64,000 bases of DNA, from the IMG/VR virus record IMGVR_UViG_3300031884_000008; one strand, given 5' to 3'. Below the pieces are notes generated by a model that worked only from the letters and a program-made list of their open reading frames with translations, searched no databases and was not told where the DNA came from. Numbering within the stretch: position 1 is the first letter of the stretch; each line of letters opens with the position of its first letter. Positions 4,216 through 48,233 of this stretch are shown here, piece by piece. The translations under genes and the position numbers were made by a program. The DNA is from a virus (lineage: Duplodnaviria; Heunggongvirae; Uroviricota; Caudoviricetes).

Positions 4216-4216
4216 C

Positions 4217-4564
4217 ATGAGAATTGCTGAAATATTTTCTCCAAGTGAACCATACCGTGCTCCTCACCATGGTCGGGAACTTGAGTTGATGCTTGCTGGT
4301 ACAAAGCCGGCTGCATTGATTGACGCCTCTCCCGGATTCAAGGAAAAAGCGGATAAGTTAATACAGCAAGGTCGTATCAAACTTATTGCAAAAGACCAAA
4401 ACGGAGATTATGTTATCACTTTGCCCGGTGAAGAATGGCGAGGGGAAGAGATATTAAAACTTATATCTTCTTCAGATAGAGGCAGGGAGTATGACATCAA
4501 ATTGGGTAAATTATTGGGATACTCCGACGAAGCTATTCAGTGGTGGATAGATCAAACCGATTGA
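4217..4564 (+). CDS. hypothetical protein
   Basis: 115-aa ORF translationally coupled to the previous gene. Confidence 0.35.
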   Translation: MRIAEIFSPSEPYRAPHHGRELELMLAGTKPAALIDASPGFKEKADKLIQQGRIKLIAKDQNGDYVITLPGEEWRGEEILKLISSSDRGREYDIKLGKLLGYSDEAIQWWIDQTD

Positions 4565-4595: not shown

Positions 4596-5231
4596 ATGAT
4601 CATAGGAATTACAGGCAAGATCGGATCCGGCAAGGATACCGCAGCAGACTATCTGTGCACCGTTCATGGATTCAAACGCATGAGCTTTGCTGGAACTCTT
4701 AAAGATGCTGTATCAGCAGTCTTCAACTGGGATAGAGAACTCCTTGAAGGCTCTACCAAAACAAGCAGAGAATGGAGAGAGACTGTTGACCAATGGTGGG
4801 CTGACAGACTAGGTATTCCAAATCTAACTCCTCGTTGGATTCTTCAGCAATGGGGGACAGATGTTTGTAGGAAAAGCTTTCACAATGACATCTGGGTAGC
4901 TTCAGTCGAGAATCGGCTCCTAGTTACAAAGGATGATATCGTCATCACTGACTGCAGGTTCCCAAATGAGATTAATGCTATCCAGTCAGCAGGCGGAATC
5001 ACTATGAGAACTAATCGCGGCGGCACCTACATATGGGAACAGTTCGCTGCTAAGTTCAACAACTCGACGGATGAAGAAGAACGCAATCATCTTAAGCTCA
5101 TCCTAGAGAAGGAATATGAAGTTCATGCTAGCGAATACAGTAGCGTTGGTCTAGAATATGATTGCCAGATAGATAATAATGGCACGATTGACAGTCTGCA
5201 TCAGCAGATTGAATCAATAATCAACGGTTAG
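4596..5231 (+). CDS. deoxynucleoside monophosphate kinase (T4 gp1-like)
   Basis: GKIGSGKDTAADYL P-loop; FAGTLKDAVSAVFNW, RWILQQWGTD and ITDCRFPNEINAIQSAGG align with T4 gp1 motifs. Confidence 0.7.
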   Translation: MIIGITGKIGSGKDTAADYLCTVHGFKRMSFAGTLKDAVSAVFNWDRELLEGSTKTSREWRETVDQWWADRLGIPNLTPRWILQQWGTDVCRKSFHNDIWVASVENRLLVTKDDIVITDCRFPNEINAIQSAGGITMRTNRGGTYIWEQFAAKFNNSTDEEERNHLKLILEKEYEVHASEYSSVGLEYDCQIDNNGTIDSLHQQIESIING

Positions 5232-5730
5232 GGTTAGACTTACAGTTATCAAAATGCCATCTAGCTAATATTAACTTTGTTCCTTCTTTACCGCAGTGCG
5301 GACAGGTTGTCTTTACAACGCATTGATGAGTACCTTCGTCCGTGCGTTGTTTTGCTGATCTTCGTTGTATGTCTCCGGATAATAGATGGTGTTTTCCACT
5401 AGCTACTAATTCCCTTTGTAGCTTTCCTCCGACTAGGGCACTTTTTCCGTCTGCTATTTGTCTTCTCACCATGCTTCGTTGAAACTCACTATCTAAAAAG
5501 AGGTGTGTTCCGTTCTCTAGTCTTTTCTTATTGTGAAGGCTTGACAATTCGGATATTTTGCTAGGGGACACACTCATTCTTTGGGCTATTCTAATACACG
5601 CACCCCAGTCTCCTTGGGAATAATGTATGTCGTAGTGATCTTGTATAGAGACGGCAATCAGATTGTTAGGATCGTTGTTTTTTCTATTCCCATCTAAGAT
5701 GGTGTATTTCATAGGTTCTCCCATCCTCAT
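5221..5730 (-). CDS. homing-endonuclease-like protein (degenerate HNH_3 motif, NUMOD-like repeats, C-terminal CPHC...WHFDNCK zinc finger)
   Basis: ILDGNRKNNDPNNLIAVSIQDH resembles I-HmuI-type HNH but lacks the first His; the C-terminal Zn module is shared with the GIY-YIG genes at 16957 and 54135. Confidence 0.45.
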   Translation of the reverse strand: MRMGEPMKYTILDGNRKNNDPNNLIAVSIQDHYDIHYSQGDWGACIRIAQRMSVSPSKISELSSLHNKKRLENGTHLFLDSEFQRSMVRRQIADGKSALVGGKLQRELVASGKHHLLSGDIQRRSAKQRTDEGTHQCVVKTTCPHCGKEGTKLILARWHFDNCKSNPNR

Positions 5731-5848
5731 CTACGGGGATGGGACCATTGTGGTCTTCGTATATTTTGCGGTAGTTGGTTTTTCTATAAATAGACATTGC
5801 TGATACTCCTTGACAGTATTAGAGTAGTTGGGGATTGCCGTCCCGCGA

Positions 5849-5856
5849 ACTACATC
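5849..5856 (-). promoter_or_regulatory. exact T4-type late promoter box TATAAATA (minus strand), followed on the transcript by a hairpin
   Basis: Reverse complement of tatttata at 5849-5856; hairpin GTAGTT...AACTAC at 5822-5845. Confidence 0.45.
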
Positions 5857-5857
5857 T

Positions 5858-6256
5858 TTATTTATACCAATCTACTGTCAAATCTCCGCGTTTCCAAGTG
5901 ACTTCTTTGCGCTTCACTACTTCAACGCAATTCAAACATATCGTCCTTAAATTATTGAACGATACATTAGTTAAGTCCCCGTCAATGTGGAACACCGTTG
6001 TTTGGCTGGGATAAACTACTTTAAATCCGCATAGGTCGCAAGTGGATTTTTTCTTGTATCCAGCCTTCTCCCAAGTATGAACCTGTGCCTTCTTTTTAGG
6101 CTTGTTCTTTCCACACCCATCACAAATACTACGGTAATGCGTCACTCCGTTCTTCTTGTAGTTGACGGCACAGTAGTTCTTATTACAGGTCTTACAGATG
6201 GGTCTTTTCAGCATACTAATACTTATCAAAAAACCTTCGAAGGTGCGTCTAACCAA
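5858..6256 (-). CDS. Cys-rich zinc-finger / HNH-like small protein
   Basis: Multiple CxxC pairs; HIDGDLTNVSFNNLRTICLNC resembles an HNH core. Confidence 0.4.
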   Translation of the reverse strand: MVRRTFEGFLISISMLKRPICKTCNKNYCAVNYKKNGVTHYRSICDGCGKNKPKKKAQVHTWEKAGYKKKSTCDLCGFKVVYPSQTTVFHIDGDLTNVSFNNLRTICLNCVEVVKRKEVTWKRGDLTVDWYK

Positions 6257-6355
6257 GGATTTTTTAATCCTACGCTAAATAAGTGTTAGAAACCTAGTGT
6301 TACTAGCATTAGGGGACAGGTGGTAAACCTCATAATTATACAAAGGAAAAATAAT

Positions 6356-9300
6356 ATGACACTAGTTTCTCCAGGTGTAGAAGTAACGATCATTGATCAA
6401 TCTCAATATCTTCCGGCCCCGCTCGGTACAATTCCTTTTGTTTTGCTCGCGACCGCAGCAAACAAAGCTGATCCTACTTCTACTTCTGTAGCAGTCGGAA
6501 CCACAGCAGCAAACGCAAACACGCTATTTCAAATCACTAGTCAACGTGATCTTGTAACTCTATATGGTAATCCATTCTTCTATACGACTTCGAATGGTAC
6601 TCCTATTCAAGGATACGAACTCAATGAATATGGTTTGCTAGCTGCATATTCTGCACTAGGTGTATCTAACTTAATTTACTGCCTAAGAGCAGATATCGAC
6701 CTCGCAAGTCTAGTAGGACAGACTGGTCGTCCTACTGGAAATCCAGCTGACGGAACTTATTGGTTAGATACTACTAACACCACTTGGGGCATTTACGAAT
6801 TTAATTCTACTACTGGGCAATTTGAAATTCAATCTCCGATTGAAATTAGCGATATTACGCTAGTATCTGCTGGATATCCAATTCAAAGCTTGGGTTCAGT
6901 GGGTGATTACGCGGTGATCGCAATTCCTAATTACACATATCCTTCTGCAAACAATGCTAAACAATTCTTCTATAAGAACTCATTTAATCAATGGGTGGCA
7001 ATCGGAACGTCTGCTTGGTTCGCTTCGGTTCCTACGGTTCAAGGTAGCAATTCACTACCAACGTTGAATTCAGGTGATTCTATCAGCATTGCGATGGGTG
7101 GCCCTGCAAACGGAGCGAATGGTCCCGTTTATACTATTACTGGACAGACTACTGTTTTTGGTCTAGCATCAGCTATTAATGCTTTACAGCGTCCGTATTT
7201 GTCAGCAAGTGTTGTAGGCGGAAATCTTCAACTTTTCTCTACACAAACTGGACAGGCTCCTAATAACAGCGTTCCGTTTTACATTAATATTTCAGGTACC
7301 GGCACAATGCTTACCTCCTTGGGCATTACCGCAGGTAATTATTTCCAACCGAATGTTGCCTATGGTACATCTGCACAGCAGCCATTATGGCAACAAGGTC
7401 AACTTTTCCCGAGCCCAACTGGATCAGTTTGGATCAAGATTGGATCTGCTGGCACTGGATTCAATCCAGTAATATCACAATGGGACAGCACACAGGCAGT
7501 TTGGTCTTCTAAAACTGTATCATTCGCTACTAGCGACGTTGCTGCGATCAATTCATTAGATTCAACTGGTGGAAAAAACATTCCAGCTGGAACGGTCTAT
7601 GCGCAATACAACTATGATGCTGATATCATCAATACTTCAGGCGTTCCTGGTTATCAAGCAGGTCCAATTTATTATTGGGAAAGACTTACATCTGGTCCAA
7701 CTGTAATTACTGGTTCTATGCAAGATCCTACATTTACTAATGGCCCATATACTAGTCATGTGTATGTTTCAATTCCAGGATCAAACGGATTGTCAGCACC
7801 TTATACGCTTAGTGTCGCAGATAACGCTACAGCGCTTGACTTTGTAACTGCTTGGACGACTGCTGCTATTCCATATACAACAGCTATGTTATTGGATACT
7901 GGAGAAATTCAATTGACTCACACTGAGGGTGGCGTGATCGTAGTAAATGACTTTGACACTAGTACATTCCAACCAAACGGTTTAATGAGTGACGCTGGAT
8001 TTGTTGTAAGTTATACTGAAGGAGTCAAAGTTGGTCCGTTTGTATCACCATTGATGACACCTACACCAACATATACTACTGGCGTAGGAACCGATTTGTC
8101 AATTAGCGTTACTAATAACTTCCAAAATTATCAAGTAAATCCTATTTCTTTTGCAAATCCAGGAACTGGTTATACTGTAGGAGACTTAGTAACATTCCCA
8201 GGTAGCCAATTAGGTGGTACTGGTACTGGTGGAATTACTCCATCAGGAAATGACTTGACTGTAAGAGTTGAAGAAACTTCAACAGGAGCAGTCACTAAAG
8301 TTTCTTACTATGCAGGCTCCGGCGCCGCAAACTACATGGTTGAATTGTCAAATTGGATACAATTTTACATGACTGCAAACGAAGGCGCACCAACTGCGGC
8401 TCCTGCTGATCTAACAAATTGGTTTTATAGTGTAGTAGATCAAGTAGATATTATGGTAAATACTACTACTGGATGGAAGGGCTATAGAAATGCATCATAC
8501 AGCAGTTCAGGTCTTCCTCTTCCATCAGGATCAAACATGACCGACCCTAACGGACCACTTATAAGTGCTTCAGAACCAATGCTGCAATCAAGCGGTCAGG
8601 CCCTTGCATATGGTGATATTTGGATCGACACTAGTGATCTAGAGAATTATCCTCTTATAAATCGTTGGGAAAGCGTAAATGGCGTAGATCAATGGGTAAG
8701 ATTAGATAATACTGATCAGACCAGTTCAACTGGTGTTCTGTTTGCAGATGCACGTTGGGCCACTACACAATACGTTAGCCCGGTTAATGATCCTATTCCA
8801 ACGATCAAGTCATTGTTGACTAGCAACTATCTTGATTTGGATGCACCAGATCCTACTTTATATCCAGTAGGTATGTTATTGTTCAATACTCGTCGTTCGG
8901 GATATAATGTAAAGCAATTCCGTTCTAACTACTTTAACAATAACAGATTCCCAGGAGCAAATATTCCCAATCAAACTGATGCCTGGGTAACAGAATCCGG
9001 GTTGCAAACAAACGGTGCTCCGTATATGGGCCGCAAGGCACAAAGAGCAATGGTTGTTAAGGCAATGCGTGAGGCAATCGACACAAATACTGCAATTCGT
9101 GACGAAGATAACGCATTCACCTTGATTGCAACTCCGAACTATCCTGAACTACAACCTAACATGGTTGTTCTCAATAACGATAGAGGAGACACTGGATTCA
9201 TCATCGGTGATACGCCGATGAGACTAGCAGATGATGCTACCTTAATTCAAGCATGGGCAACTAATGCTGCCAACGCAACGTCAACTGGTGAAGACGGTCT

Positions 9301-16956: not shown

Positions 16957-17541
16957 ATGAATGACCCGTTATCCTTTTACGTATATGCATATCTTCGCAG
17001 CGACGGGACGCCTTATTACGTCGGTAAAGGTAAGGGCGACCGAGCATGGAACCATAGTAGGTCTGATACCGTACATCCACCGCAGGATAAGCGAAAAATT
17101 ATAATTTTGGAATCCGGGTTGACCAACTTGGGTGCTTTGACACTTGAACGAAGAATGATTCGTTGGTATGGGCGCATTGATTTGGGCACAGGTATACTTA
17201 GGAACCAAACTGATGATGGTGGTGATGGTGCATCTGGTGTCAAACAATCACAAGAAACGATAGCAAAACGAGTAGCCTCTTCCAAGGGAAAGGCTATGGG
17301 AATGACAGGAAAAAAACACACGGTTAAATCTAATGAACAACGTAGACTGTCGATGTTAGGTAAAAATACAACTCCTCATACTACGGAACGCAGATTGGCT
17401 AATTCTAGGTCAAAGCTTGGTATGAGATACAAATCACAATATATCCTTAATTGTCCACATTGCAATACTTCCGGAGGAAGTTCAAACATGAAGCGATATC
17501 ACATGGATAATTGCAAACACCTACAAAAGGTAATAGTATGA
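16957..17541 (+). CDS. GIY-YIG homing endonuclease with C-terminal CPHC...YHMDNCK zinc finger
   Basis: [32 protein letters not shown] motif; ATAAATA 7 nt upstream. Confidence 0.7.
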
Positions 17542-20500
17542 GTCAACAGAACATAGATTTTGGTACTTTTCCAGACGATCCAAATGCGGATGCAATTCGT
17601 ATTGCATTTCAAAAAACCCAGAATAACTTTAGTCAACTGTTTGACACGCTACAATCTCAATCAGTTTTATCTGTAAATAAATCTCAGGGCGCTGGAATTA
17701 CTGTCAACTCTCCTACAGGAAATGTGGTAGTATCAGCTAATATTGCCTGTGTTCAGGTAACCAGCACTACATTAGCCGTCGGTATCAACGGGTCAAATAA
17801 CTCCGGTAAATCAGGAGGCCTTGCAACAGTAACTAAATCTACAGACATTCTTCTAGTAGATTTACCATATGATGTTGCTAACATTAATAATATTACTGCT
17901 GCACAAACTATCACGGCAAACGACATTGTAGCTAACAATTCCTTCACATCTACTTCATTTTCTGCTACTGGTAATGTGTCTGCAGGAAATCTATTTTCTA
18001 CTGGTAACATCTATGCTAATTCAGGCAATGCGAATGTATCAAATGTTAATGCGGGAAATGGTTACTTTACAGCGAACCTATCAGTAATTTCTAATGTTTC
18101 TGCTGGCAATGTTTATGCAAACTCAGGTACAGTGGGCGCAGCTACTGGTAATTTTTCTGGAAATGTTAATGCAGCTAATGCTAATTTAGGTAATACCGTA
18201 ACTGCAAATTTCTTTAGCGGAAATGGATACTATCTTACTGGTGTAATTACTGCACCCGGACCTAAAATTGTTAATGGTGCTAGCTATACCAATATCGCTA
18301 CTTCAGGTGGAAACGTAGTTACAGCGGTAAATGGCAACACAACATTTACGGTTACGTCGACCGGAGCTAATATATCTGGTACCTTAGGTGTTACTGGAAA
18401 TATTACTGCCGGTAATCTCGACGGCGCCAATAGTGTTTTCGCTAATTATTTAACCGGAACATTAACTACTGCTGCACAACCGAACATCACATCAGTTGGT
18501 ACTCTCTCTAGCTTAAGTGTTAATGGAACTGTTACGGCTCCCAACTTCACTGCTAATACAGGGGTGTTTACAGGTAATGGTAGCGGTCTATCATCTATTG
18601 CCGGCGCCAATGTAACCGGTGCAGTCGCATATGCTACAACTGCTAACTCGGTAGCCGGAGCCAACGTTTCAGGTACAGTAGGTAGCGCAACCAATGCAGC
18701 CGCAGTTCTTAGTAACTCAGCCTCAACTGGTACTTATTATATTCCATTCATATCATCAATCGCAAATGGTAACTATACACACGCATCAAATGCTAATTTC
18801 AGCGCAAATCTATCCAATGGCTATATCACAGCAACTGGTTTTGTAGGCACACTTAGTGGCTCTGCTACATCTGCAACTACAGCAGGTACAGTGACAACTA
18901 ATGCACAACCAAACATCACATCAGTTGGTACTCTCTCTAGCTTAAGTGTTAATGGAACTGTTACGGCTCCCAACTTCACTGCTAATACAGGAGTGTTCAC
19001 GGGTAACGCTAATGGATTGACTGGAATTCCTGGAGCCAATGTCACAGGTGCAGTCGCATATGCTACCACTGCTAACTCAGTAGCAGGAGCTAATGTGTCT
19101 GGTGCAGTCGCATATGCTACCACTGCTAACGCAGTAGCAGGGGCGAATGTTTCAGGTACAGTTTCTTCGGCTACGTCTGCAACTAATGCGTCCGCAGTAT
19201 TAAACAACGTACAAACAACTGGTACTTATTACCCAGCATTCATATCATCTACTGCTAACGGCAATTATGCGCACGCATCTAATAGTGCATTTAGTGCTAA
19301 TTTTGCAAATGGTGCACTTTCTGCTACTACTTTCGTAGGTACATTAAGTGGTGCGGCCACTACAGCAGGCACAGTAACAACAAATGCACAACCAAATATT
19401 ACATCGGTTGGCACTTTAACAGGGCTAAATGTTAACGGTACAATAACTGCGCCTAACATCACTGCAAACACTGGTGTATTTACCGGTAATGGTAGTGGTC
19501 TGTCAGCTATTGCTGGCGCTAATGTTACTGGTACGGTTTCGAGCGCATCGACTGCAACTACTGCAACTACTGCGGGTACAGTAACGACGAATGCACAACC
19601 AAATATCACTTCAGTTGGTACTTTAGCTAACTTAACAGTAGGAAACGCATCGGCCAATACTCAATTTGGAAATGGAACAATTAACGCCGCTGGTAATGTT
19701 CAAGCTGCAAACTTGATTGGTCCTCTCGCATCTGGTAATTCTAACGTTACTATCACTGCCAACAGCAACGTCAACATTTATGTTGCAGGTAATGCTACAT
19801 CTCAATTAACAGTGACCTCAACTGGTGCAAACATCGCAGGTTATGCAACGGTTGCCGGTAATTTAACTTCAGCTAATGCAAACTTAGGAAACTTAGCAAA
19901 AGCTAATTACTTCCAAGGAGACGGCGGACTGTTAAGTAACATTACCGTTTCAGGGGGAACTTCTATTGTTAACGGTAATAGTAATATTGCTGTAGGTGCC
20001 AATAGCAACATTACGATGAGTGTTGCTGGTGTTTCCAATGTAATGGTAATTACCAGTACTGGAGCAAACATTACCGGAACATTAACAGTAGGAAACGTAT
20101 CTGCAGGAAACATTACCGGTAATGTCACTACTGCTGCTCAAGGAAATATTACCTCATTAGGTACTCTTACAGGGTTAACTGTTGCTGGTCCCGTAAACTT
20201 AGGACCAGCAAGCAATCTAACATTATCCGGTGGATCAGCTAATCAGCTACTTGTCTCTAACGGCGCCGGCGGCGCAGCATGGCAAACTGTAACTAGCTTA
20301 ACCCTTGCTCCGGGCTCTAATACACAAGTATTGTTTAACGATTCGGGTAGCTTTGCTGCAAACAGCGGTCTCACCTTTAACAAAACAACTGGAGCACTTA
20401 CTGTTACTGGAAATGCTAATACCGGTAATATTGGTGCAAACAATGCAGTGTTCACGTCTGTTACAGGTACGTTAACTACTAACGCACAACCAAACATTAC

Positions 20501-22073
20501 TTCAGTTGGTTCGTTGACCTCGCTGATTGTAACTGGTAACATCAATTCTGGTAATATATCTGGTGGTAATTTAGTAAGTGCCAATTATTTCAGCGGTAAC
20601 GGTAATGCACTGTCTAGTATTCAAGGTGCAAATGTAACTGGTACAGTAGGTAGCGCGACCAATGCGGCCGCAGTTCTTAGCAATTCAGCATCAACTGGTA
20701 CTTATTATATTCCATTCATATCATCAATCGCAAATGGTAACTATACACATGCATCAAATGCCAATTTCTATGCTAATTTGGCTAATGGATACATTACAGC
20801 AACCGGATTCGTAGGCACACTGAGTGGCGCCGCAACATCTGCAACTACCGCAGGCACAGTAACGACGAATGCACAACCAAACATCACATCAGTTGGTTCG
20901 TTGACCTCACTGATTGTAAACGGTAATATCAATTCTGGTAATATATCTGGTGGTAATTTAGTAAGCGCTAATTACTTTACTGGTTCTCATGCTAATGGTA
21001 ACTCAAACATAAACATTCCATCAGCTGATGGTAACATAAACTTTAGTAGTGCAGGTAATGCGAATGTTGTTGTAGTAACCGGGACAGGTGTCAATGTTTC
21101 TGGCACATTAAACGCAACCGGCTACGCGAACGTTGGTAACTTAGGTACCGCACAAGTACTTGCAACTGCAAACGTAACTGCTCCGCAATTAATCTCAAAC
21201 ATAGCAACAGGTACTGCACCGTTCGCTGTATCAAGCACAACACAAGTTGCTAACTTGAACTCGCAATATGCAGGTACAGCTAACTCAGTAGCAGGTGCAA
21301 ACGTAACCGGTGCAGTAGCGTATGCAACGACTGCTAACTCAGTAGCAGGTGCTAACGTAAGTGGTGAAGTTGGTCTTGCTACATACGCAACAACAGCAAA
21401 CGCGGTAGCAGGTGCTAACGTATCAGGTACTGTTGCTAACGCAAATAATTCTGCATATTTAGGTGGTACTGCGGCAGCAAGTTATCTATTAACAAACGGT
21501 ACTGGTAGTGGTTTAACTGCAATTACTGGTGCAAACGTAACCGGCGCAGTTTCACAAGCAACAACTGTGATGGGTAACACTCAGAACAATATTAATACAC
21601 TTGGTGCATTAACTACATTAAGTACAGGTGCAAACACTACATCAGGTACTATCACTGGTAACTGGTCATTAAGTGCAGGTTCAAAATTAGCCGCAACTTA
21701 TTCTGACTTGGCAGAAAAATATGTTAGTGATGCAGAATATGCTCCGGGTACAGTATTAGTATTTGGTGGTGAATATGAAGTGACATTAGCTAATACATTT
21801 GATAGTACACGTGTAGCAGGTGTAGTAACAACTGCCCCGGCTTACACTATGAATAGCGAATGTCAAGGTGAACATGTTGTTAACATTGCGCTACAAGGTC
21901 GTGTACCATGTTTAGTAATGGGTCCGGTAAGTAAGGGTGACTTAATGGTTGCAGGTACAAATGGTCGTGCAGTTGCTAATAATGAAGCACGTGCAGGTAC
22001 TATTATCGGTAAGTCATTAGAAAACTTTACAGGTACTGAAGGTATTATTGAAGTTGCTGTTGGTAGATTCTAA
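17538..22073 (+). CDS. tail fibre protein, highly repetitive, with possible C-terminal intramolecular-chaperone-like domain
   Basis: Ala/Thr/Gly/Asn-rich ~80-aa repeats ([19 protein letters not shown]...); C-terminal ...YSDLAEKY...[12 protein letters not shown]... loosely resembles the S74 chaperone start (SD-x-K); start codon overlaps GIY-YIG stop (ATGA). Confidence 0.6.
18440..21000 (+). repeat. long near-identical direct repeats (~90-250 bp units) within the fibre gene
   Basis: e.g. cacaacc(g/a)aacatcacatcagttggtactctctctagcttaagtgttaatggaactgttacggctcccaacttcactgctaatacagg at 18478 and 18904. Confidence 0.8.
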
Positions 22074-22124
22074 AAAGGTCACATTGTATTTTATTAAACA
22101 TTTATTAAAAATGATAAGTACAAT

Positions 22125-22394
22125 GTGATTAATGTTTTTCAATTAGAATACGAAACAAGACTAAAGAGTTGGTACGAACTCAGGCAATCCCTCGAAAACA
22201 AAGATATTGCCACTAAGTGTTTAGAAATAGACAAATGGTGGCAGTACGCACCTTTGGTTAATTATTATCTTCATCCAGATGATATTGATAATTGGCCCGG
22301 TCCGTGGGAATTACTGAATGATAACAATTATTGCCAAATTGCCAGGGGTTTGGGTATGCAATTTGCGTTCTCGTTTCGGTGTATAATACAATAA
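22125..22394 (+). CDS. hypothetical protein (paralog of next gene, shorter)
   Basis: YLHPDDIDNWPGPWELLN shared with 22395 ORF. Confidence 0.35.
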   Translation: MINVFQLEYETRLKSWYELRQSLENKDIATKCLEIDKWWQYAPLVNYYLHPDDIDNWPGPWELLNDNNYCQIARGLGMQFAFSFRCIIQ

Positions 22395-22838
22395 ATGAAC
22401 ATATTTTTACAGGATTACTATTTACGCCTCAAGGCGTGGCATGAACTTAGAGAAATCCTTAAGGACAAAGATTTGCAAACAATCTGCGTCGAGGTTGATA
22501 AGTTTTGGCAATGGGCACCTATTAGTGCCCATTATCTTCATCCAGATGACATAGAAGACTGGCCTAATCCATGGGAACTACTCAACGTGAATACTTACTG
22601 TCTATATGGTCGTGCATTGGGCATGATTTATACTCTTGTGTTATTGGGCGTACAAGACATTGACTTTGTTGAAGGAATAAGTGATAATGACAAAGATGTC
22701 ATATTAGTTCTGGTTGATAACGCAAAATATGTTATGAATGGTGGTATAGATACAGTGTTAAATACTGATCTTGCGTCGTTCGACATAAAGAAACATATCA
22801 ACATAGATCCATTGACACAGAAGATAGGCAAGCAATGA
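22395..22838 (+). CDS. hypothetical protein (tandem paralog)
   Basis: YLHPDDIEDWPNPWELLN; sits right after the fibre gene. Confidence 0.4.
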   Translation: MNIFLQDYYLRLKAWHELREILKDKDLQTICVEVDKFWQWAPISAHYLHPDDIEDWPNPWELLNVNTYCLYGRALGMIYTLVLLGVQDIDFVEGISDNDKDVILVLVDNAKYVMNGGIDTVLNTDLASFDIKKHINIDPLTQKIGKQ

Positions 22839-24490
22839 CAATTAATGTAACAAAAAGATCAGGAATAATCGAACCCCTACAACTAGAAAAGTGGCAGTCG
22901 CAAATCGCTAAAATTTGTAGCGGCATCGCTGACATTAGCCAATCGATGATTGAAATCAAAGCTTCTCCTCATTTTTTTGATGGCATTACTACTAGAGAAA
23001 TTGACGAGCTAACCCTGCGCGCAATAGTAGACCTAATTGATATTGAATCTAATCCGGACGTTGGTCATACCAATTACCAATTTGTGGCAGGTAAGCAAAG
23101 ACTGTCTATGTTGCGCAAAGACGTATATGGACAATTTCAGCCGCCGCATCTTTATGAGATAGTAAAGAAGAACGTAGAAGTAGGGCTGTATACATCTGAA
23201 CTGCTTGATTGGTATACGGAAGACGATTGGAATAAAATGAATGAAATGCTTGACCATGAAAAGGATGAGCAATATTCATATGCGGCGATTGAACAATTAG
23301 TAGAAAAGTATCTAGTTCGCAACAGAGCAACTAAAGAAATCTACGAAACTCCACAAGTTAGATACATGATCGCCGCCGCGACGGTTTTTCACAGCGAAGA
23401 ACCTAATACAGCCAGAATGCGATATATTAAGGAATATTATAATGCTGCGAGTGATGGGCTTTTTACTCTTGCTACTCCTGTGCTTGCTGGCCTTGGCACT
23501 CCTACTAAACAATTTAGTAGCTGCGTTCTTATTCGTAGCGACGATGATCTAGATAGCATCTTTGCTTCCGGAGAGATGATGGCAAAGTATGCGAGCAAGC
23601 GTGCTGGTATTGGACTAGAGATAGGAAGATTGCGTTCATTAGGTTCGCCAATTCGCGGCGGAGAAATCATGCATACCGGTATGATTCCTTTTCTAAAGAA
23701 ATGGTTCGGAGACCTCCGTTCGTGTTCTCAGGGAGGAATCAGAAACGCATCCGCCACTGTCTTTTATCCTATCTGGCATCACCAATTCGATGACCTAATT
23801 GTATTAAAGAATAATCAGGGAACCGAAGAAACCCGTGTTCGTCATATGGATTATGGCGTTGTTCTCAGTGCATTCTTCTGGCGCCGATTCAAGAATAAGG
23901 AAAACATCACCTTCTTTGATCCAAATGAAGTTCCAGATTTATATGAAGCGTTCTATAAGAACACAGCAAAGTTTGAAGAACTTTATGTAAAGTACGAGAA
24001 ACGTAAAGACCTTCGTAAGAAGACAATGAGTGCTGAAGAAGTGTTTAAGGGAGGCATACTAAAGGAACGCACAGACACTGGCCGCATCTATTTGGTCTTT
24101 ATCGACAATGTTATGAAGCAAGGCCCGTTCGATCCTGAGTACCATACTATATATCAATCTAACCTTTGCTGTGTAACCGGTGAAACACAAGTAACTTTCT
24201 TGCACGAAAACGGCAACACAGAACAAATGTCTGTTTCTAGTGCTGTGGAAAGATTTGAATTAGGTAATTTAACTACTTCAAAGATTAAAAGTTTTAAGAA
24301 TGGTGAAGTTTCCTGGGAAAATATTTCTGCGGCAATTAAAACTAAAACAGTCACCGAACTGTATGAAATTGAAGATGAAAACGGTAATGTATTGAGATGC
24401 ACAGGAGACCATCGTGTTTTTACTAAGAATAGAGGTTATGTAAGAGCCGATGAATTAGTTGAAACTGACGAGTTATGTGTTGAAATTTGA
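22835..24490 (+). CDS. nrdA: ribonucleotide reductase class Ia alpha subunit, N-terminal fragment (to active-site SNLC) fused to intein N-terminal half
   Basis: NrdA motifs (QFSSCVL, SNLC); intein block A CVTGET begins at ~24173 directly after SNLC; block B RCTGDHRVFT; in-frame stop at 24488. Confidence 0.75.
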   Translation: MTINVTKRSGIIEPLQLEKWQSQIAKICSGIADISQSMIEIKASPHFFDGITTREIDELTLRAIVDLIDIESNPDVGHTNYQFVAGKQRLSMLRKDVYGQFQPPHLYEIVKKNVEVGLYTSELLDWYTEDDWNKMNEMLDHEKDEQYSYAAIEQLVEKYLVRNRATKEIYETPQVRYMIAAATVFHSEEPNTARMRYIKEYYNAASDGLFTLATPVLAGLGTPTKQFSSCVLIRSDDDLDSIFASGEMMAKYASKRAGIGLEIGRLRSLGSPIRGGEIMHTGMIPFLKKWFGDLRSCSQGGIRNASATVFYPIWHHQFDDLIVLKNNQGTEETRVRHMDYGVVLSAFFWRRFKNKENITFFDPNEVPDLYEAFYKNTAKFEELYVKYEKRKDLRKKTMSAEEVFKGGILKERTDTGRIYLVFIDNVMKQGPFDPEYHTIYQSNLCCVTGETQVTFLHENGNTEQMSVSSAVERFELGNLTTSKIKSFKNGEVSWENISAAIKTKTVTELYEIEDENGNVLRCTGDHRVFTKNRGYVRADELVETDELCVEI

Positions 24491-24499
24491 TTCCCGAAC

Positions 24500-24506
24500 A
24501 TAAATA
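24500..24506 (+). promoter_or_regulatory. late-promoter-like ATAAATA box plus hairpin sequestering SD and ATG of the HNH gene
   Basis: acATAAATAcatatggagaaattcatATG; ACATATG/CATATGT 7-bp stem encloses the GGAG and start codon. Confidence 0.45.
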
Positions 24507-24523
24507 CATATGGAGAAATTCAT

Positions 24524-25459
24524 ATGTATAAAGAACTTTATAAGACTATAATTGACAACGCAAGAAAAGAAAACAGAATGAGAAATCAAGGAACATATTA
24601 TGAACGACACCATATCGTTCCTGATTTCTTGTACAAGAACAGAAAGAGAACAGGACCAAACGGGCATCTAGACGGTAATCCAGATAGCGCGGAGAATTTA
24701 ATTCTATTGACTTTTTCCGAACACTTAATGGCTCATTACTACTTGTATGAGATTTATAAAGGAACTCGTTATGAATACTCTGCTGGTTCTGCCCTGCAAT
24801 TCTTTTTTGTAAAAGCGACAGGCAACCACAAACGACAAATTAATTTGTCAGATGTTGATGAAAAGTTTCTTAAAGAAATGGAACACTTAAGACTACTAGG
24901 CAATGAATGTATTAGTAAGGCAAGAAAAGGAAAGATGCCTGTTGTCGATGCTGTGACTAGAGAAAAAATAGGATCAGTCTCCGTAGATCACCCTAAAGTT
25001 TTATCAGGGGAATGGGTTCATCATAGTAAAGGCGTTCCTGGAAAGTCTGCAAGAGATATGTCTGGTTCTAAAAATACTAACTTTAAGGAATTAACTCAGG
25101 ATCGAAGAGAAAGAATGTGGAAATGTGTGTCTGAATCTTGTCAAGAGGGTTACTTGAAGTTACACTTATTGCAGGATAATATGAAAAAAGAATTTGTAGA
25201 GTTTAAGAAAATTTCATTGGCGTGGATAGGCAAAAAGTTTGGATCTTTAGAAAATCTAATAAACGAAACGAATAAGAACTTGAATCTAAACATCAAATAT
25301 AATCCATATCATAGAAGCGCAGAGCAACGACGGGTTGCAGCAGAACACTCAAAAAAACATCGATGGTACAACAACGGCGTACAAAATGTAAGAGTCACAG
25401 ACGAAGAAGAATTTTGTAAACATAATCCAAATTATGTATTAGGAAGAATAAAAATATGA
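24524..25459 (+). CDS. free-standing HNH homing endonuclease located between split-intein halves
   Basis: YYERHHIVPDF...NGHLDGNPDSAENLILLTFSEHLMAH HNH motif; stop overlaps the start of the intein-C ORF (ATGA). Confidence 0.7.
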   Translation: MYKELYKTIIDNARKENRMRNQGTYYERHHIVPDFLYKNRKRTGPNGHLDGNPDSAENLILLTFSEHLMAHYYLYEIYKGTRYEYSAGSALQFFFVKATGNHKRQINLSDVDEKFLKEMEHLRLLGNECISKARKGKMPVVDAVTREKIGSVSVDHPKVLSGEWVHHSKGVPGKSARDMSGSKNTNFKELTQDRRERMWKCVSESCQEGYLKLHLLQDNMKKEFVEFKKISLAWIGKKFGSLENLINETNKNLNLNIKYNPYHRSAEQRRVAAEHSKKHRWYNNGVQNVRVTDEEEFCKHNPNYVLGRIKI

Positions 25460-26544
25460 TTAAAATTAAAAAAATTAAAGTAGAACCAACCGATGTATAT
25501 GACTTATCTGTGCCTGAAACAGAATGTTTCTTTGCTAATAACATATTAGTTCATAACTGCGAGATCCTACTACCTACAAAGTCATTCAAGAGACTAGATG
25601 ATGAGGCCGGCCGAATTGCGCTGTGTACCTTAGGGAGTATTAATTGGGGTGCGTTCCGTAACCCAGAAGATATGCGCCGAGCATGTCGTATTCTACTAAG
25701 AAGTCTGAATAACATTTTGGATTATCAAGACTTCCTTTCTATTCAGTCTAAGTTATCGAATGACGAGATTCGTCCAATCGGTATCGGTGTAACTAATCTC
25801 GCATACTGGCACGCTAAGCGCGGATATAAGTACGGAGACTCAGATGCACTACAGGACGTAAAGAGTTGGGCAGAACACCAGACTTACTACCTCATGGAAG
25901 CAAATGTAGAATTGGCAAAAGAGCGTGGAAAGTGCATTGACTCTGACAAGACCCGCTATGGTCAAGGAATCTTTCCCTGGGAACTTAGAGCCAATGGTGT
26001 AAACGAGCTAGCAGACTTTAATCCTGAGCTTGATTGGGAATCACTACGATTTGAAATGAAAGAGTATGGTGTGCGAAACAGCACAGTTGGTGCCATTGCT
26101 CCGGTTGAATCTTCATCTGTTGCCATTAATTCAACTAATGGTATTGCACTACCAATGAGTTTGATTTCTGTTAAGGAATCAAAAGCGGGATCCTTCGTGC
26201 AAGTTGTCCCAGAATATCATAATATTAAGGTCAGAAAGAATTATCAGTTGATGTGGGATCAGGTTGATTGCGTCGAGTATCTTAAGACCTCTGCTGTTCT
26301 TGCTGCATACATGGATCAATCAATTTCAACTGATACGTTCTATAATCCAGCACATTTCCCTGATCGCAAGATACCAACTACGCTAATTGCTAAAAATTTG
26401 ATGCTAGCACATAAGTTCGGTCTCAAGACGCTTTATTATAGCCTCGTGTGTAAACAAGGTTCTAAAGAAGAAGCCGACGATGCACCTCTTATGCCTATAG
26501 ACTTTTTTGAAGATGAAGATTCCTGCGAGAGTTGTAAGTTATAG
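25456..26544 (+). CDS. nrdA: intein C-terminal half (34 aa, blocks F/G ...ILVHN) fused to NrdA C-terminal fragment
   Basis: VYDLSVPETECFFANNILVHN|CEILLPTK; C-extein resumes with CEI of the SNLC-x-EI active site at ~25558. Confidence 0.75.
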   Translation: MIKIKKIKVEPTDVYDLSVPETECFFANNILVHNCEILLPTKSFKRLDDEAGRIALCTLGSINWGAFRNPEDMRRACRILLRSLNNILDYQDFLSIQSKLSNDEIRPIGIGVTNLAYWHAKRGYKYGDSDALQDVKSWAEHQTYYLMEANVELAKERGKCIDSDKTRYGQGIFPWELRANGVNELADFNPELDWESLRFEMKEYGVRNSTVGAIAPVESSSVAINSTNGIALPMSLISVKESKAGSFVQVVPEYHNIKVRKNYQLMWDQVDCVEYLKTSAVLAAYMDQSISTDTFYNPAHFPDRKIPTTLIAKNLMLAHKFGLKTLYYSLVCKQGSKEEADDAPLMPIDFFEDEDSCESCKL

Positions 26545-26575
26545 CATGTAAACTATAAGTTTTCTGTAAACTATG

Positions 26576-26582
26576 ATAAATA
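26576..26582 (+). promoter_or_regulatory. late-promoter-like ATAAATA box inside an inverted repeat (CTGTAAAC...GTTTACAG)
   Basis: tgATAAATAagtttacaggagatttacATG. Confidence 0.4.
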
Positions 26583-26600
26583 AGTTTACAGGAGATTTAC

Positions 26601-27269
26601 ATGAACTATGAAAAAATATACAATACATTAGTAAGTAGAGGACAGAGTAGAATACTAGAAGGATATAGCGAGAAGCATCATATTGTTCCTAAATGTCTTG
26701 GTGGAACCGATGACGCATCTAACTTAGTATCATTGACTCCTGAAGAACATTATTTGTGTCATCTGTTATTAGTTAAACTGTATCCTAACAATATACGACT
26801 GGTAAAGGCCGCTATGTTTATGCTATCATCAAATAGTGAACAACAGAGAAACAACAAGTCATATGGCTGGTTAAAGAGACAATATTCCGAATATATGCGC
26901 GGTCCTAATAACCCGGCAAAACTAAACGGACCATGGAACAAGGGTATGACAGGCTATAAAAATAAAGTCAACTTTTCGGACGACACATTAAAATCAATGT
27001 CTACCCGAATGACGGGTGAAAAAAATCCATGTTCTGGTGTTAAGCCCTGGAATCATCCAAGAGCAACAGATTATTCTAAATCTGTTTGGAAACAAGCAGA
27101 AACGATTTACAATGTTTGGGTAGAAAACAATAAACCCTCGTACTGTAAGTTATATACATTAGTGAACGATAAGAGTTATATTAATGAAAGCAAAGTTATA
27201 GGACCGTATATGAATATGGTAAAATATTTTAGAAGTGGTTGGATTCCAACACAAGATACCGAGTTGTAA
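26601..27269 (+). CDS. HNH homing endonuclease
   Basis: YSEKHHIVPKCLGGTDDASNLVSLTPEEHYLCH. Confidence 0.65.
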   Translation: MNYEKIYNTLVSRGQSRILEGYSEKHHIVPKCLGGTDDASNLVSLTPEEHYLCHLLLVKLYPNNIRLVKAAMFMLSSNSEQQRNNKSYGWLKRQYSEYMRGPNNPAKLNGPWNKGMTGYKNKVNFSDDTLKSMSTRMTGEKNPCSGVKPWNHPRATDYSKSVWKQAETIYNVWVENNKPSYCKLYTLVNDKSYINESKVIGPYMNMVKYFRSGWIPTQDTEL

Positions 27270-27468
27270 AGGAAAGCAGATTAAATACACCTACAGCGAA
27301 AGCATTGCTCCGTACGTAAAGAAGACTACTAAAGGTATTAATAAAACAGAAGAGCATAAAAAGAATCAAAGCAAAGCAATGAGCGGCCGTAGTGGGACAA
27401 AAGAGTGGTGCGAACAACATAGCGAAGCAATGAAGAAGTATCACGCAAAGATGAAAGACAAACTTTAG
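27235..27468 (+). CDS. NUMOD3-like fragment, possibly frameshifted C-terminal extension of the HNH gene
   Basis: KTEEHKKNQSKAMSGR resembles a NUMOD3 repeat; overlaps 26601 ORF in a different frame. Confidence 0.3.
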   Translation: MVGFQHKIPSCKGKQIKYTYSESIAPYVKKTTKGINKTEEHKKNQSKAMSGRSGTKEWCEQHSEAMKKYHAKMKDKL

Positions 27469-27519
27469 GAACGGTTGGGTTCCTATAGAAGATTTAGAAT
27501 GGAAAGAACTAAAGGAAAA

Positions 27520-28107
27520 AAAATGAAATTTAAAAATATCGTAGCAACAGCATTAGTATTATTCGCCGTCGGCGCCGGCGCAGTTTTAGCTGAGCCACTG
27601 CATGTCTGTAAAAATATTGACTATGCTCTATGTGCCGCAAGTCCAACTACGCCAACAGGTAAAACCATGAAGGTCAATGGCAAAACATTCAAAGAAGGCA
27701 TGGCAGCATGTCCAATACTTCACGGTGATGCTGCGGCCAACCTAAACCTGATGAATGGGTCATGTGATGCTCCTGGTCCAGGTAAAATTTGGAGTTTGTT
27801 TGGCATTCCAGCCCAGACCAGTTATCCACAACAACCCACTTGGGCGGTGGCACCTGCACAATTTAGAAGCTTCATTATTGGCACAACGCCTACAACCGGT
27901 ATGAGCAATATGTGGAGTTTTCCATGCGAGATCCAAGCACAAAAAGTCAATGGAGTAAAGTTGGCTTCGTGTTATGGACCTATCATGGAAAGTCCTTGGA
28001 CTAACGATCATGTTAAACCTGGCCAGATTGGATTTACCCAGGCCGCAGAAGGTGTGACATATCCGGTTGGTGGTAATGCTCCGGCTAACATTGGATCTAA
28101 AAAATAA
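27520..28107 (+). CDS. secreted Cys-rich protein (signal peptide), unknown function
   Basis: MKFKNIVATALVLFAVGAGAVLA signal-like N-terminus; 8 Cys; inserted between nrdA and nrdB. Confidence 0.45.
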   Translation, partial: KMKFKNIVATALVLFAVGAGAVLAEPLHVCKNIDYALCAASPTTPTGKTMKVNGKTFKEGMAACPILHGDAAANLNLMNGSCDAPGPGKIWSLFGIPAQTSYPQQPTWAVAPAQFRSFIIGTTPTTGMSNMWSFPCEIQAQKVNGVKLASCYGPIMESPWTNDHVKPGQIGFTQAAEGVTYPVGGNAPANIGSKK

Positions 28108-28108
28108 T

Positions 28109-29209
28109 ATGAGTAAAGCGCAATACAATCTCAATACCAAGACAGACTACCTGCATCGCAAGATGTTCCTGGATCCAGCAGGTCCCGTAACCATCCAACG
28201 ATTTGAGGAAGTAAAATATAATAAGCTAGCAAAAATAGAGCAAACTGCCCGCGGCTTCTTTTGGATTTCAGAAGAAATCAGTTTGACTAAAGATGCCAAT
28301 GACATGAAAGATGCTAGCGAGACAGTAGCACATATGTTTACTAGTAACCTATTGAGACAGACAGCCTTAGATAGTATACAAGGCCGAGCACCTGCGCAGG
28401 TGTTTACGCCAGCATGTTCTATTCCGGAACTAGAAGCAATCATGTCCAATTGGTCCTTTTTTGAAACAAATATTCATTCTCGGGCGTATTCACACATTAT
28501 TCGTAACATCTATAACGTCCCTAAGGAAGTTTTCAACACCGTTCACGATACTAGAGAAATCATCGATATGGCTGCAAGTGTAGGTGAATACTATGATCGT
28601 TTACATCTATTAAATTGTAAGAAAGAATGCGGTATTGATGTTTCTGAGGAAGAACACATTAATGCTATTTGGCTAGCGCTACATGCATCTTATGCACTTG
28701 AGGCTTTTCGATTTATGGTTTCATTTGCTACGTCACTTGCGATGGTAGAAAACAAAATCTTTATGGGTAATGGCAACATCATCAGTCTTATTTTACAAGA
28801 TGAGTTACTGCACAAAGAGTGGACTGCCTGGATGATTAACCAAGTGATCAAAGAAGATCCTCGATTTTTGCGAGCAAAAAATGAATGCGAAGCAGAAGTC
28901 CGTAAGATTTATGAAGATGTTATACGTGAAGAAAAGGAATGGGCCGGATATCTGTTCAAGAAGGGCCCGGTTATAGGTCTTAACGAACGAATCATGATAG
29001 ATTTTGTGGATTACAATGCTGTAGATGCATTGAAGCAGATTGGTATTAAGTATTGGAATCCGGCTCCAAAGTCCACTCCTATTCCATGGTTCAACAAACA
29101 CATGGATACTAGTAAGAAACAAACGGCGCTGCAAGAGTCAGAAAGTACTAATTACGTAGTCGGAATCATGTCACATGACCTAAATTACGATGAACTACCC
29201 AATATTTAA
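28109..29209 (+). CDS. nrdB: ribonucleotide reductase class Ia beta subunit
   Basis: Di-iron/tyrosyl radical motifs (EEHINAIW..., SFATSLAMVENKIFMGN...ELLHKEW). Confidence 0.75.
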   Translation: MSKAQYNLNTKTDYLHRKMFLDPAGPVTIQRFEEVKYNKLAKIEQTARGFFWISEEISLTKDANDMKDASETVAHMFTSNLLRQTALDSIQGRAPAQVFTPACSIPELEAIMSNWSFFETNIHSRAYSHIIRNIYNVPKEVFNTVHDTREIIDMAASVGEYYDRLHLLNCKKECGIDVSEEEHINAIWLALHASYALEAFRFMVSFATSLAMVENKIFMGNGNIISLILQDELLHKEWTAWMINQVIKEDPRFLRAKNECEAEVRKIYEDVIREEKEWAGYLFKKGPVIGLNERIMIDFVDYNAVDALKQIGIKYWNPAPKSTPIPWFNKHMDTSKKQTALQESESTNYVVGIMSHDLNYDELPNI

Positions 29210-29218
29210 GGAGAAGAA

Positions 29219-29452
29219 ATGAAGGCATTAATTTGGTCAAAGGAAAATTGCACCTACTGTGTGCAAGCAAAGGCTCTATTGGATTCTAAGGGAATCGAAT
29301 ATGAAGAACGTAAGATCGGGTCAGGATACGCAATAGAAGATTTGCTTGAGGCAATTCCAAACGCTCGCACTGTTCCGCAAATCTTTTTAGACGGAGCGTA
29401 TGTCGGCGGCTTCCGCGAGCTACAAGCTAAGTTTTTAGCGGAGTCAGTGTAA
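29219..29452 (+). CDS. glutaredoxin (NrdC/NrdH-like)
   Basis: 77 aa, CTYC redox motif, adjacent to nrdB. Confidence 0.65.
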   Translation: MKALIWSKENCTYCVQAKALLDSKGIEYEERKIGSGYAIEDLLEAIPNARTVPQIFLDGAYVGGFRELQAKFLAESV

Positions 29453-29453
29453 T

Positions 29454-29753
29454 ATGAAGTTTGAAGAAAACGAAGTGTACTCGTTCAAGATGCACAGCGG
29501 CGAAGAAATGATCGCAACGTATTTGGGTATGGACGGTGATGAATTGATCATTCACAATCCGGTATCAGTCGCACCTGGTCCGCAAGGTATGGGACTCATT
29601 CAATCCATGTTTACTTCAGATACGAAGTCTGATCCTAGACTAAATAATAGCAGCTACTCACTAGTATGCAAGACTGATGCCACTATTACTGAAAAGTATG
29701 TGGAAGCAACGACTGGTCTAGTAGTACCTAAAAAGAAGTTTATCACGGGCTAA
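29454..29753 (+). CDS. hypothetical protein
   Basis: 99-aa ORF, coupled. Confidence 0.35.
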   Translation: MKFEENEVYSFKMHSGEEMIATYLGMDGDELIIHNPVSVAPGPQGMGLIQSMFTSDTKSDPRLNNSSYSLVCKTDATITEKYVEATTGLVVPKKKFITG

Positions 29754-30022
29754 TGGCAAAGCTATCCAGAAAAAACGATACGACGGAAGCTAATGGTAAG
29801 ATAGTTCGCGGGGCCAGTACCGTGTTTGCGAACGGAATTGCTGTTGGTTTGCATGTCAGCGACATCACTCCTCACCCTGGCGGAGGTAAGCATAATGCCT
29901 CTAAGACTACTGAAGGTAGTCCTAGCGTATTTGCTGATGGTGTCGCGGTCCTTCGTGTAGGTTCTGGGACTACATGTGGTCACAAAGTCAATCAGGGTAG
30001 TCCTGACGTGTTTGTGCCTTAG
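29753..30022 (+). CDS. PAAR-like small Gly-rich protein (gp5.4-like spike tip candidate)
   Basis: GSPSVFADGVAVLRVGSGTTCGH...GSPDVFV repeats resemble PAAR-domain organisation. Confidence 0.35.
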   Translation: MAKLSRKNDTTEANGKIVRGASTVFANGIAVGLHVSDITPHPGGGKHNASKTTEGSPSVFADGVAVLRVGSGTTCGHKVNQGSPDVFVP

Positions 30023-47593: not shown

Positions 47594-47637
47594 AATTATA
47601 TGCCGTGTTAGCTCATACAACATACCTATTAATAGGC

Positions 47638-48227: not shown

Positions 48228-48233
48228 TATTAC

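Follow-up and report, generated by a model that had tools for sequence, protein, structure and literature searches.

The nrdA gene in a 64,000-nucleotide (nt) stretch of Caudoviricetes DNA (IMG/VR record IMGVR_UViG_3300031884_000008; hereafter the window) is very probably a real and functional 'fractured' gene. Its coding sequence, for the large subunit of a class Ia ribonucleotide reductase (RNR), is interrupted between the codon of the radical cysteine and that of a native cysteine by a cassette consisting of a split intein and a free-standing homing endonuclease gene (HEG). Genes of this kind have been known since 2009. It differs from them in the nature of the endonuclease, which is MobE-like and classed as HNH-type, and in a point of insertion that is shifted downstream by one residue relative to the classic NrdA intein site.

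Organisation of the locus

Three open reading frames (ORFs) on the plus strand make up the interrupted gene. ORF1 (22835-24490, 551 amino acids (aa)) encodes NrdA residues 1-445 followed by the N-terminal half of an intein (IntN), and ends in a TGA stop. ORF2 (24524-25459, 311 aa) has a separate start and stop and is the HEG. ORF3 (25456-26544, 362 aa) begins with the C-terminal half of the intein (IntC, 34 aa) and continues into NrdA residues 446-773. This layout and its coordinates are those of the initial annotation, which was made from the letters and their ORFs, and they hold.

The N-extein (22835..24169, 445 codons) comprises the ATP-cone, the all-alpha domain and the first half of the barrel, as placed by Pfam, NCBIfam, tblastn and alignment. 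It ends with ...YHTIYQSNLC, residue 445, and its last codon (TGC, 24167-24169) is that of the thiyl-radical cysteine, the equivalent of C439 in E. coli. IntN (24170..24490) follows directly as CVTGETQVTF...RCTGDHRVFTKNRGYVRADELVETDELCVEI, 106 codons and the TGA, with DELCVEI as its C-terminal residues; it had been placed correctly after SNLC and before a stop, but was given as 105 codons. ORF3 reads MIKIKKIKVEPTDVYDLSVPETECFFANNILVHN and then CEILLPTKSFKRL..., on to the NrdA C-terminus. Its first 34 codons (25456..25557) are IntC, as assigned by TIGR01443, Pfam and alignment to the NrdJ-1 intein, and the C-extein (25558..26544, 328 codons and TAG) starts with Cys+1 in CEILLPT. The in-frame fusion of a 34-aa IntC to CEILLPT had also been read correctly from the sequence, together with the overlap of the HEG stop and the ORF3 start.

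The three ORFs are closely packed. In the window a 33-nt spacer separates IntN from the HEG, and ORF1 and the HEG share one frame, one TGA and 11 codons apart. At the other end of the HEG, its TGA stop overlaps the ATG of ORF3 in an ATGA at 25456-25459. A sequence resembling a Shine-Dalgarno element (SD), AGGAAG, lies on the plus strand within the 3' end of the HEG (25441..25446), 9 nt before this ATG, and a purine-rich element occupies the equivalent place in most related loci. ORF3, having its own AGGAAG, is therefore independent of HEG translation.

Intein halves and the case for splicing

The segments that flank the HEG resemble known intein blocks, as had been proposed. TIGR01445 matched IntN with 29.2 bits against a curated cut-off of 24.5, TIGR01443 matched IntC with 25.6 bits against a cut-off of 15.6, and Pfam Intein_splicing was found on the inner ends of both ORF1 and ORF3 (positions 122-155 on the IntC side). 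When IntN and IntC were fused, the best relative in the PDB was the NrdJ-1 intein (8ubs, E = 7e-19), which is split at the identical position. NrdJ-1 is a split intein from the 'fractured genes' reported in 2009 (PMC2677866) and is among the fastest trans-splicers measured (PMC7090010). The split in the window falls at the canonical endonuclease-insertion site and gives halves of 106 and 34 aa (canonical split inteins have an IntN of about 100-125 aa and an IntC of about 35-40 aa).

The residues expected of a class 1 intein are all present. ORF1 contains C446 (Cys1, block A) and T523-G-D-H526 (the TxxH of block B, within RCTGDH), and ORF3 contains the Asp of VYDLSV (block F), H33-N34 (block G) and Cys35 (+1). 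Intact catalytic residues, purifying selection (below) and homology to the active NrdJ-1 intein together suggest that protein trans-splicing would restore NrdA.

Were the intein catalytically dead, the NrdA fragments might instead assemble non-covalently through their intein-half tails, as in Aeromonas phage Aeh1, in which the HNH gene mobE divides nrdA and the resulting NrdA-a and NrdA-b function while held together by tails (PMC2677866; PMC3045599). The endonuclease in the window is MobE-like, as in Aeh1, and splicing in the window is a prediction. Still, we consider a non-covalent NrdA unlikely. Cys1, TxxH, the block F Asp, HN and Cys+1 are kept in all of about 20 homologous loci, even where IntN is only 46-50% identical. 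The ratio of non-synonymous to synonymous substitution (Ka/Ks) of IntN is 0.04-0.08 against its relatives of the same type (type II), and that of the HEG is 0.05-0.10. On these ratios both IntN and the HEG are under purifying selection, the latter being a maintained gene, and such constraint on IntN speaks against a dead intein. In addition, the closest solved relative, NrdJ-1, is an efficient trans-splicer, and the break adjoins the active-site radical cysteine, where a covalent join is most needed.

Integrity of NrdA and precision of the insertion

The two same-strand ORFs jointly cover an intact NrdA, with neither gap nor overlap in the extein. Pfam Ribonuc_red_lgC aligned over its positions 1-257 on ORF1 and 213-522 on ORF3, and NCBIfam PRK09103 (class Ia NrdA, 761 positions) over 4-441 on ORF1 and 440-760 on ORF3. 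In tblastn comparisons with the intein-less NrdA of Xanthomonas phage X1, the closest cultured one, the match extended to residue 445 of ORF1 and resumed at residue 36 of ORF3, and a single codon of the X1 gene lay between the two aligned parts. The virtual spliced product (445 + 328 = 773 aa) aligned end to end with the 772-aa X1 NrdA at 60% identity, the junction reading SNLC-C-EILLPT in the former and SNLC-Q-EILLPT in the latter.

Intact alleles at SNLC|CEI, which the initial annotation had suggested looking for in related phages, proved to be common. Among the best 80 IMG/VR relatives of the N-extein (88-91% aa identity), 74 carry an uninterrupted SNLCCEILLPT. Since these intein-less relatives are contiguous over this sequence, the cassette can be delimited as 24170-25557, or 1388 nt. 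As judged from the alignments, it lies exactly between the thiyl-radical cysteine (-1) and a cysteine native to the clade, the predicted +1 nucleophile. NrdA inteins classically lie one residue further upstream, with the radical cysteine itself as +1. This classic site is used in loci L015-L022 of our set, in Yersinia phage TG1, and in Dickeya phage LIMEstone1 and Salmonella phage maane (SSNL|CFTG...VHN|CLEI); it was also the site in all seven NrdA loci reported in 2009, where the +1-shifted site was described only for NrdJ (PMC2677866). A break at the active-site cysteine, as first noted, is thus borne out, with the qualification that the intein follows the catalytic cysteine and does not occupy the classic site before it. 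The Ser codon before the junction was tried as a marker of co-conversion, and was mixed among the intein-bearing alleles (8 TCN, 12 AGY).

The completeness of the coding sequence bears on whether nrdA could be a decaying pseudogene, inactivated by mobile DNA in a phage that uses the RNR of its host. There is a precedent for this view in Campylobacter phage CPt10, whose similarly interrupted nrdA has been annotated and discussed as a pseudogene (PMC3653736). In the window, however, both extein halves are full length, complementary and free of internal stops, and the product is as similar to the intact X1 NrdA as stated above. Furthermore, the layout is conserved where the exteins have diverged to 43% aa identity, and nrdB and a glutaredoxin gene are retained downstream. 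We therefore regard a pseudogene as very improbable.

Distribution of the cassette among related phages

The same order of NrdA-N/IntN, HEG and IntC/NrdA-C was found in 17 of 17 IMG/VR contigs with a HEG 52-91% identical to that of the window. The spacer between IntN and the HEG is 32 or 33 nt long across the related loci, about half having 32 nt, and in every locus ORF3 is in another frame. As the two spacer lengths place IntN and the HEG in different relative frames, there is no conserved read-through frame, and the variable frames in independent contigs mean that the in-frame TGA of the window is a coincidence and not a recoding site.

That an assembly or sequencing error, or programmed recoding, hides what is really one contiguous intein with an in-frame HNH domain might be suspected from the shared frame and 33-nt spacer of ORF1 and the HEG in the window, and from the contiguous endonuclease inteins at the neighbouring classic site in LIMEstone1 and maane, but this least probable of the alternatives, which the initial annotation had itself raised as a possible frameshift, is effectively refuted by the 17 independent contigs, in which the three ORFs recur with either spacer length, and is further opposed by the conservation of the stop, SD, hairpin and ATG, by a HEG unrelated to the intein endonuclease domains of LIMEstone1 and PH357, and by the standard genetic code, which is apparent from long intact ORFs elsewhere in the window.

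Most close nrdA alleles are empty, and the cassette is thus present or absent at one and the same site. Its DNA (IntN, spacer, HEG and IntC) is 80-89% identical to that of the other type-II loci, while the flanking nrdA is 66-80% identical and the synonymous sites of the flanking extein are saturated. The higher conservation of the cassette indicates that it is younger than its host gene.

Several alleles show decay of the HEG. In locus L023 (5265-5633) it is cut to its last 114 codons, with loss of the hairpin and the HNH part. Loci L025 (the same contig as L105; 5730-5830) and L106 (3886-3918) have lost the HEG apart from its last 9 nt, and still show the ATGA overlap. L107 (9562-9610) has a different deletion, which leaves IntN and IntC in one frame with a TAA and one codon between them. 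Read in this way, the sequences record two independent HEG deletions that leave HEG-less split inteins (L025/L105/L106 on the one hand and L107 on the other). The decayed alleles match step III of the gene-breaking model of 2009 (PMC2677866).

A further rearrangement was seen in L012 (3375-4370), where another interruption, of about 1 kb, is located in the C-extein some 10 codons past the intein. It contains a 243-aa ORF (3555-4286) with a GIY-YIG-like start (KYFCKT...YLGSG) and no Pfam match, and may represent either an intron or one more fracture without an intein.

The free-standing endonuclease

The HEG matched PHROG 655 'homing endonuclease' (4.7e-13) and PHROG 12434 'HNH endonuclease' (8.6e-8). 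Over 84% of its length it shares 34% identity with the TG1 'HNH homing endonuclease' (3e-34); it also matches the 'MobE' of phiN3 at 1e-6, and over its first 78 residues is 32% identical to the product of a neighbouring second endonuclease gene, HEG2 (26601-27269). Residues H29, H30, N58, H67 and H71 are invariant in 39 homologues, and in an AlphaFold2 model (predicted local distance difference test score, 86.5) the motif residues lie on a strand-strand-helix formed by residues 27-78. The family has 265 members in a set of 5.8 billion proteins, none of them with a name.

Profile searches gave a less distinct picture. When 14 members of the family were compared with Pfam, AHH (of the HNH/EndoVII superfamily) came up for 10 of them (best E = 0.0012) and HNH for one (0.16), all below threshold, and a search of PDB sequences with the family alignment returned only noise. 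The contiguous NrdA inteins of LIMEstone1 and PH357 contain endonuclease domains, which were compared with the HEG and proved not to be homologous to it. Taken together, the matches support a MobE-like, HNH-type enzyme. The separate ORF at 24524-25459 is thus an endonuclease gene, as first described, and the label HNH applies to it by motif and PHROG match only.

A hairpin and a putative late promoter at the endonuclease start

The start of the HEG is predicted to fold into an RNA hairpin on the plus strand (24504..24529), with an 11-bp stem (24504-24514 / 24519-24529) and a GAAA loop (RNAfold, -11.2 kcal/mol, z = -2.5). The SD of the HEG is GGAG at 24512-24515 and its start codon is at 24524-24526, and both the GGA of the SD and the ATG are inside the stem. 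Sequestration of these elements had been recognised at the outset, although the stem had been taken to be 7 bp long. It is supported by covariation: in an RNAalifold alignment of 13 loci, 10 pairs are kept, four of them with compensatory double changes, and three of the 13 loci have wholly different stem sequences.

The motif ATAAATA (24500..24506, plus strand) adjoins the stem on its 5' side and shares 3 nt with the 5' arm; it resembles the TATAAATA of T4 and is invariant in 13 of the 13 aligned spacers. In T4, TATAAATA is the late promoter, and the logic of a hairpin combined with a late transcript is established for I-TevI. Across the window ATAAATA occurs 27 times on the plus strand and 10 times on the minus strand. 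Only one of the 27 plus-strand copies is inside a long ORF, 14 lie 12-34 nt before an ORF start, including those of tail genes and of both endonuclease genes, and at least three further copies are found 14-18 nt before tRNA genes. Examples of the motif are at 3404, 10024, 11900, 12708, 13211, 16944, 26576, 34284, 47502, 50890, 53557, 56349 and 62153. At 11900, 12708, 13211 and 16944 an ATG follows after only 5-6 nt, and mRNAs from these four sites would be leaderless or nearly so. From its strand bias and placement, ATAAATA looks like a late-type promoter element of this phage. In a simple scan for promoters and terminators, 22000-29600 yielded no signal above chance. In Aeh1, the translation of mobE is repressed by a hairpin that is linked to a late promoter (PMC2677866).

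Proposed mechanism

Our proposal for the fractured nrdA is as follows. The two NrdA fragments would be translated separately, with translation of the C-terminal one starting from the SD that lies within the HEG, at its 3' end. IntN (106 aa) and IntC (34 aa) would then come together, and protein trans-splicing would join the exteins into a 773-aa NrdA with the junction SNLC-CEILLPT, identical to that of intein-less relatives, and with the junction peptide ...IYQSNLCCEILLPTK. The endonuclease would cut cassette-free alleles of co-infecting phages, and repair would copy the cassette in. On nrdA transcripts that read through the locus, the hairpin over the SD and AUG would keep the HEG silent. A transcript from ATAAATA would begin near 24512, without the 5' arm of the stem, and the HEG would be translatable only from this late transcript of its own. 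We infer this repression by the hairpin, and the escape from it through a late promoter, by analogy with phages in which such control is known.

A number of points weigh against this account. Splicing, cleavage, the target site, promoter function and the transcription starts are all deduced rather than observed, and the target of the HEG could be either the empty nrdA site or a HEG-less intein. The HEG itself has no Pfam or NCBIfam match above threshold (Pfam AHH reached 0.053, and HNH was not reached). The hairpin, besides being short, is rich in A and T, and equally good folds were obtained from 4 of 200 shuffled sequences. Lastly, the pattern of strand and position holds only for the 7-mer ATAAATA and not for TATAAATA; as an enriched element the exact octamer was rejected, with 7 copies found in the window and 5.3 expected.

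Possible exchange of endonuclease genes between inteins

Comparison of the window with L015 and L017, whose intein is at the classic site one codon upstream, revealed a graded pattern of DNA identity. It is 43-46% in the first third of IntN, where the sequences are practically unrelated, 62-64% in the middle third, and 74-87% in the last third of IntN, the spacer, the HEG and IntC. These values are segment-wise identity profiles and not a formal recombination test. This mosaic, together with the presence of a GIY-YIG gene within the same intein lineage in Klebsiella phage KP13-7 (below), suggests that a HEG and its adjoining intein segments move between inteins. A tentative extension, which we hold to be possible without favouring it, is that the mobile unit, instead of being a whole intein with its endonuclease that homes into empty nrdA, consists of the HEG together with its flanking parts of the intein (IntC and the 3' third of IntN) and homes into intein-coding DNA, so that split inteins would act as landing pads for swapped endonuclease families. 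The existence of HEG-less split-intein alleles, which are the presumed targets, fits such a view, and 'invasion of an intein by a free-standing endonuclease' is a step of the 2009 model (PMC2677866). If the idea is correct, hybrids of an IntN and an IntC from two lineages retain the ability to splice, and such exchanges can displace an intein by one residue.

Genome context

HEG2 (26601..27269, plus strand) is a further free-standing, HNH/MobE-like gene, located between nrdA and nrdB (PHROG 655, 6e-57; Pfam HNH weak, 0.0027), which is where mobE is located in T4. Its own 5' hairpin is stronger than that of the HEG (-21.4 kcal/mol, z = -5.5); ATAAATA is close to the loop, and the 3' arm contains the SD and ATG. 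Among the relatives it is polymorphic, being present only in L008, L009 and partly in L013. Downstream, also on the plus strand, are nrdB (28109-29209; Pfam Ribonuc_red_sm, 1e-38) and the 77-aa glutaredoxin gene (29219-29452; TIGR02181, 2e-16), both of which had been named in the initial annotation. In several related loci (L010, L015, L017 and L018) nrdB follows nrdA directly. A 210-aa ORF between HEG2 and nrdB in the window (27475-28107) has an N-terminal hydrophobic, signal-like segment; it had no match in PHROGs or NCBIfam, and tblastn found none in 17 related loci.

Directly upstream of nrdA (22125-22838) are two adjacent paralogous ORFs of 89 and 147 aa, without a family match, which have in common M-x-x-F-x-x-x-Y-x-x-R-L-K-x-W-x-E-L-R...HPDDI-x-x-WP-x-PWELL. 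The 147-aa ORF is kept upstream of nrdA in related contigs at 43-50% identity. They are preceded by a 1520-aa ORF (17511-22073) of many near-identical modules (recurring ...[ST][SG]L.VNG...), probably a fibre or decoration protein.

The window is a fragment of a myovirus-type phage, with tail sheath and tube genes. It has a cluster of 28 tRNA genes at 47520-62393 that covers most amino acids, and its relatives are on contigs of 260-360 kb, which suggests a jumbo-phage lineage. A megablast search with the 3.7-kb region found no match among 50,697 phage records, and the window therefore has no close cultured relative. Rfam found neither a group I intron nor any other family in 22000-30000.

Comparison with known systems

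Fractured genes were described by Dassa, London, Stoddard, Schueler-Furman & Pietrokovski 2009 (NAR 37:2560; PMC2677866), who reported NrdJ-1 and the NrdA-1 to NrdA-7 loci from Global Ocean Sampling metagenomes. The locus in the window resembles theirs in having a TATAAATA-like element beside a hairpin that covers the start of the endonuclease gene, in the split at the canonical site of the endonuclease domain, in the occurrence of HEG-less derivatives (compare their gp41-7 locus), and in an intein that is related to NrdJ-1 and occupies the NrdJ-type position, shifted by one residue past the classic NrdA site. It differs in three respects. The endonuclease is HNH/MobE-like, whereas the 2009 loci had only GIY-YIG or Vsr-like enzymes, and an HNH enzyme in this role was only predicted by those authors (PMC2677866). 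The host gene is a class Ia NrdA interrupted at the site that they gave for NrdJ. Finally, the locus is in a long phage contig, and its close relatives are mostly intein-less.

Although specialists would expect the arrangement, the present locus adds to it in several ways. An organisation first pieced together from short metagenomic reads is confirmed in a long phage contig with many sequenced relatives, and the case of an HNH-type free-standing endonuclease fracturing an intein, which was only a prediction in 2009, is now filled; we found no paper describing a free-standing HNH gene inside a split intein in the literature searched. The empty site, the split intein with a HEG, the truncated HEG and the HEG-less split intein exist side by side, and form a natural series for testing models of split-intein origin and of the homing cycle. 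An NrdJ-1-like intein with Cys at both -1 and +1 is also a candidate fast, orthogonal split intein for protein engineering.

Fractured nrdA genes are not confined to metagenomes, as had first been implied. Yersinia phage vB_YenM_TG1 (NC_028820, 135.9-141.2 kb) has the same succession of nrdA-N with IntN, a homologous HEG, IntC with nrdA-C, a second HEG and nrdB. It also has a hairpin over the SD of the HEG, with TATAAATA in the loop, which is stronger than that of the HEG in the window. Unlike the window, TG1 has its intein in the classic position (SNL|C...HN|CAEI), with an IntN that shares only 28% identity with that of the window. The TG1 annotation lists an RNR large subunit plus a homing endonuclease, and no paper linking TG1 with inteins was found in the literature searched.

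Klebsiella phage KP13-7 (Alcyoneusvirus) carries a split intein of the lineage found in the window, likewise at the C|C position (SNLC|CVTGET...EILVHN|CEI; IntN 53% identical). In contrast to the window, the gene between its halves encodes a GIY-YIG endonuclease (Pfam, 4e-7) and its nrdA has two further breaks. The KP13-7 nrdA (L002, OP617745.1; 3998-9528) is in four pieces, all annotated as hypothetical proteins. It has an intein-less break with an HNH_3 ORF (4991-5377), the split intein with the GIY-YIG gene (5574-6284 / 6346-7059 / 7013-8038), and a second split intein (...IMPGE|CQSW..., ...IVSHN|TSSQ) with another ORF between its halves (8019-8990). In CPt10 (L007, NC_027996; 2621-6688), the nrdA annotated as a disrupted pseudogene contains an IntN-like segment (38% identity with the final 70 residues of the IntN of the window) that is followed immediately by two small coding sequences; instead of being dead, this nrdA may be fractured. 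Several nrdA 'fragments' of cultured phages (TG1, KP13-7 and possibly Campylobacter phages) are probably mis-annotated functional fractured genes.

The split nrdA of Aeh1, reportedly treated by Friedrich et al. 2007, Gibb & Edgell 2007 and Crona et al. 2010, is a close parallel in which no intein is involved. Like the gene in the window, this nrdA-a/mobE/nrdA-b locus is split by a Mob endonuclease gene of the HNH family that is hairpin-repressed and linked to a late promoter (PMC2677866). The Aeh1 fragments have no intein and are joined non-covalently by their tails, whereas the HEG of the window is flanked by intact intein halves. The presence of these halves at the break shows that the window locus is not an intein-less gene-in-pieces of the Aeh1 type.

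The contiguous NrdA inteins of the Ackermannviridae (LIMEstone1 and maane) likewise interrupt the active-site loop of a class Ia NrdA, with nrdB and glutaredoxin genes following. They are encoded in single ORFs of about 1100 aa, with an unrelated endonuclease domain in frame, and occupy the classic site before the radical cysteine. Since the stop after IntN, and an ORF3 in another frame, are conserved in the 17 contigs, the intein of the window is not a contiguous endonuclease intein of this kind, but one whose two halves are encoded separately on either side of a free-standing gene.

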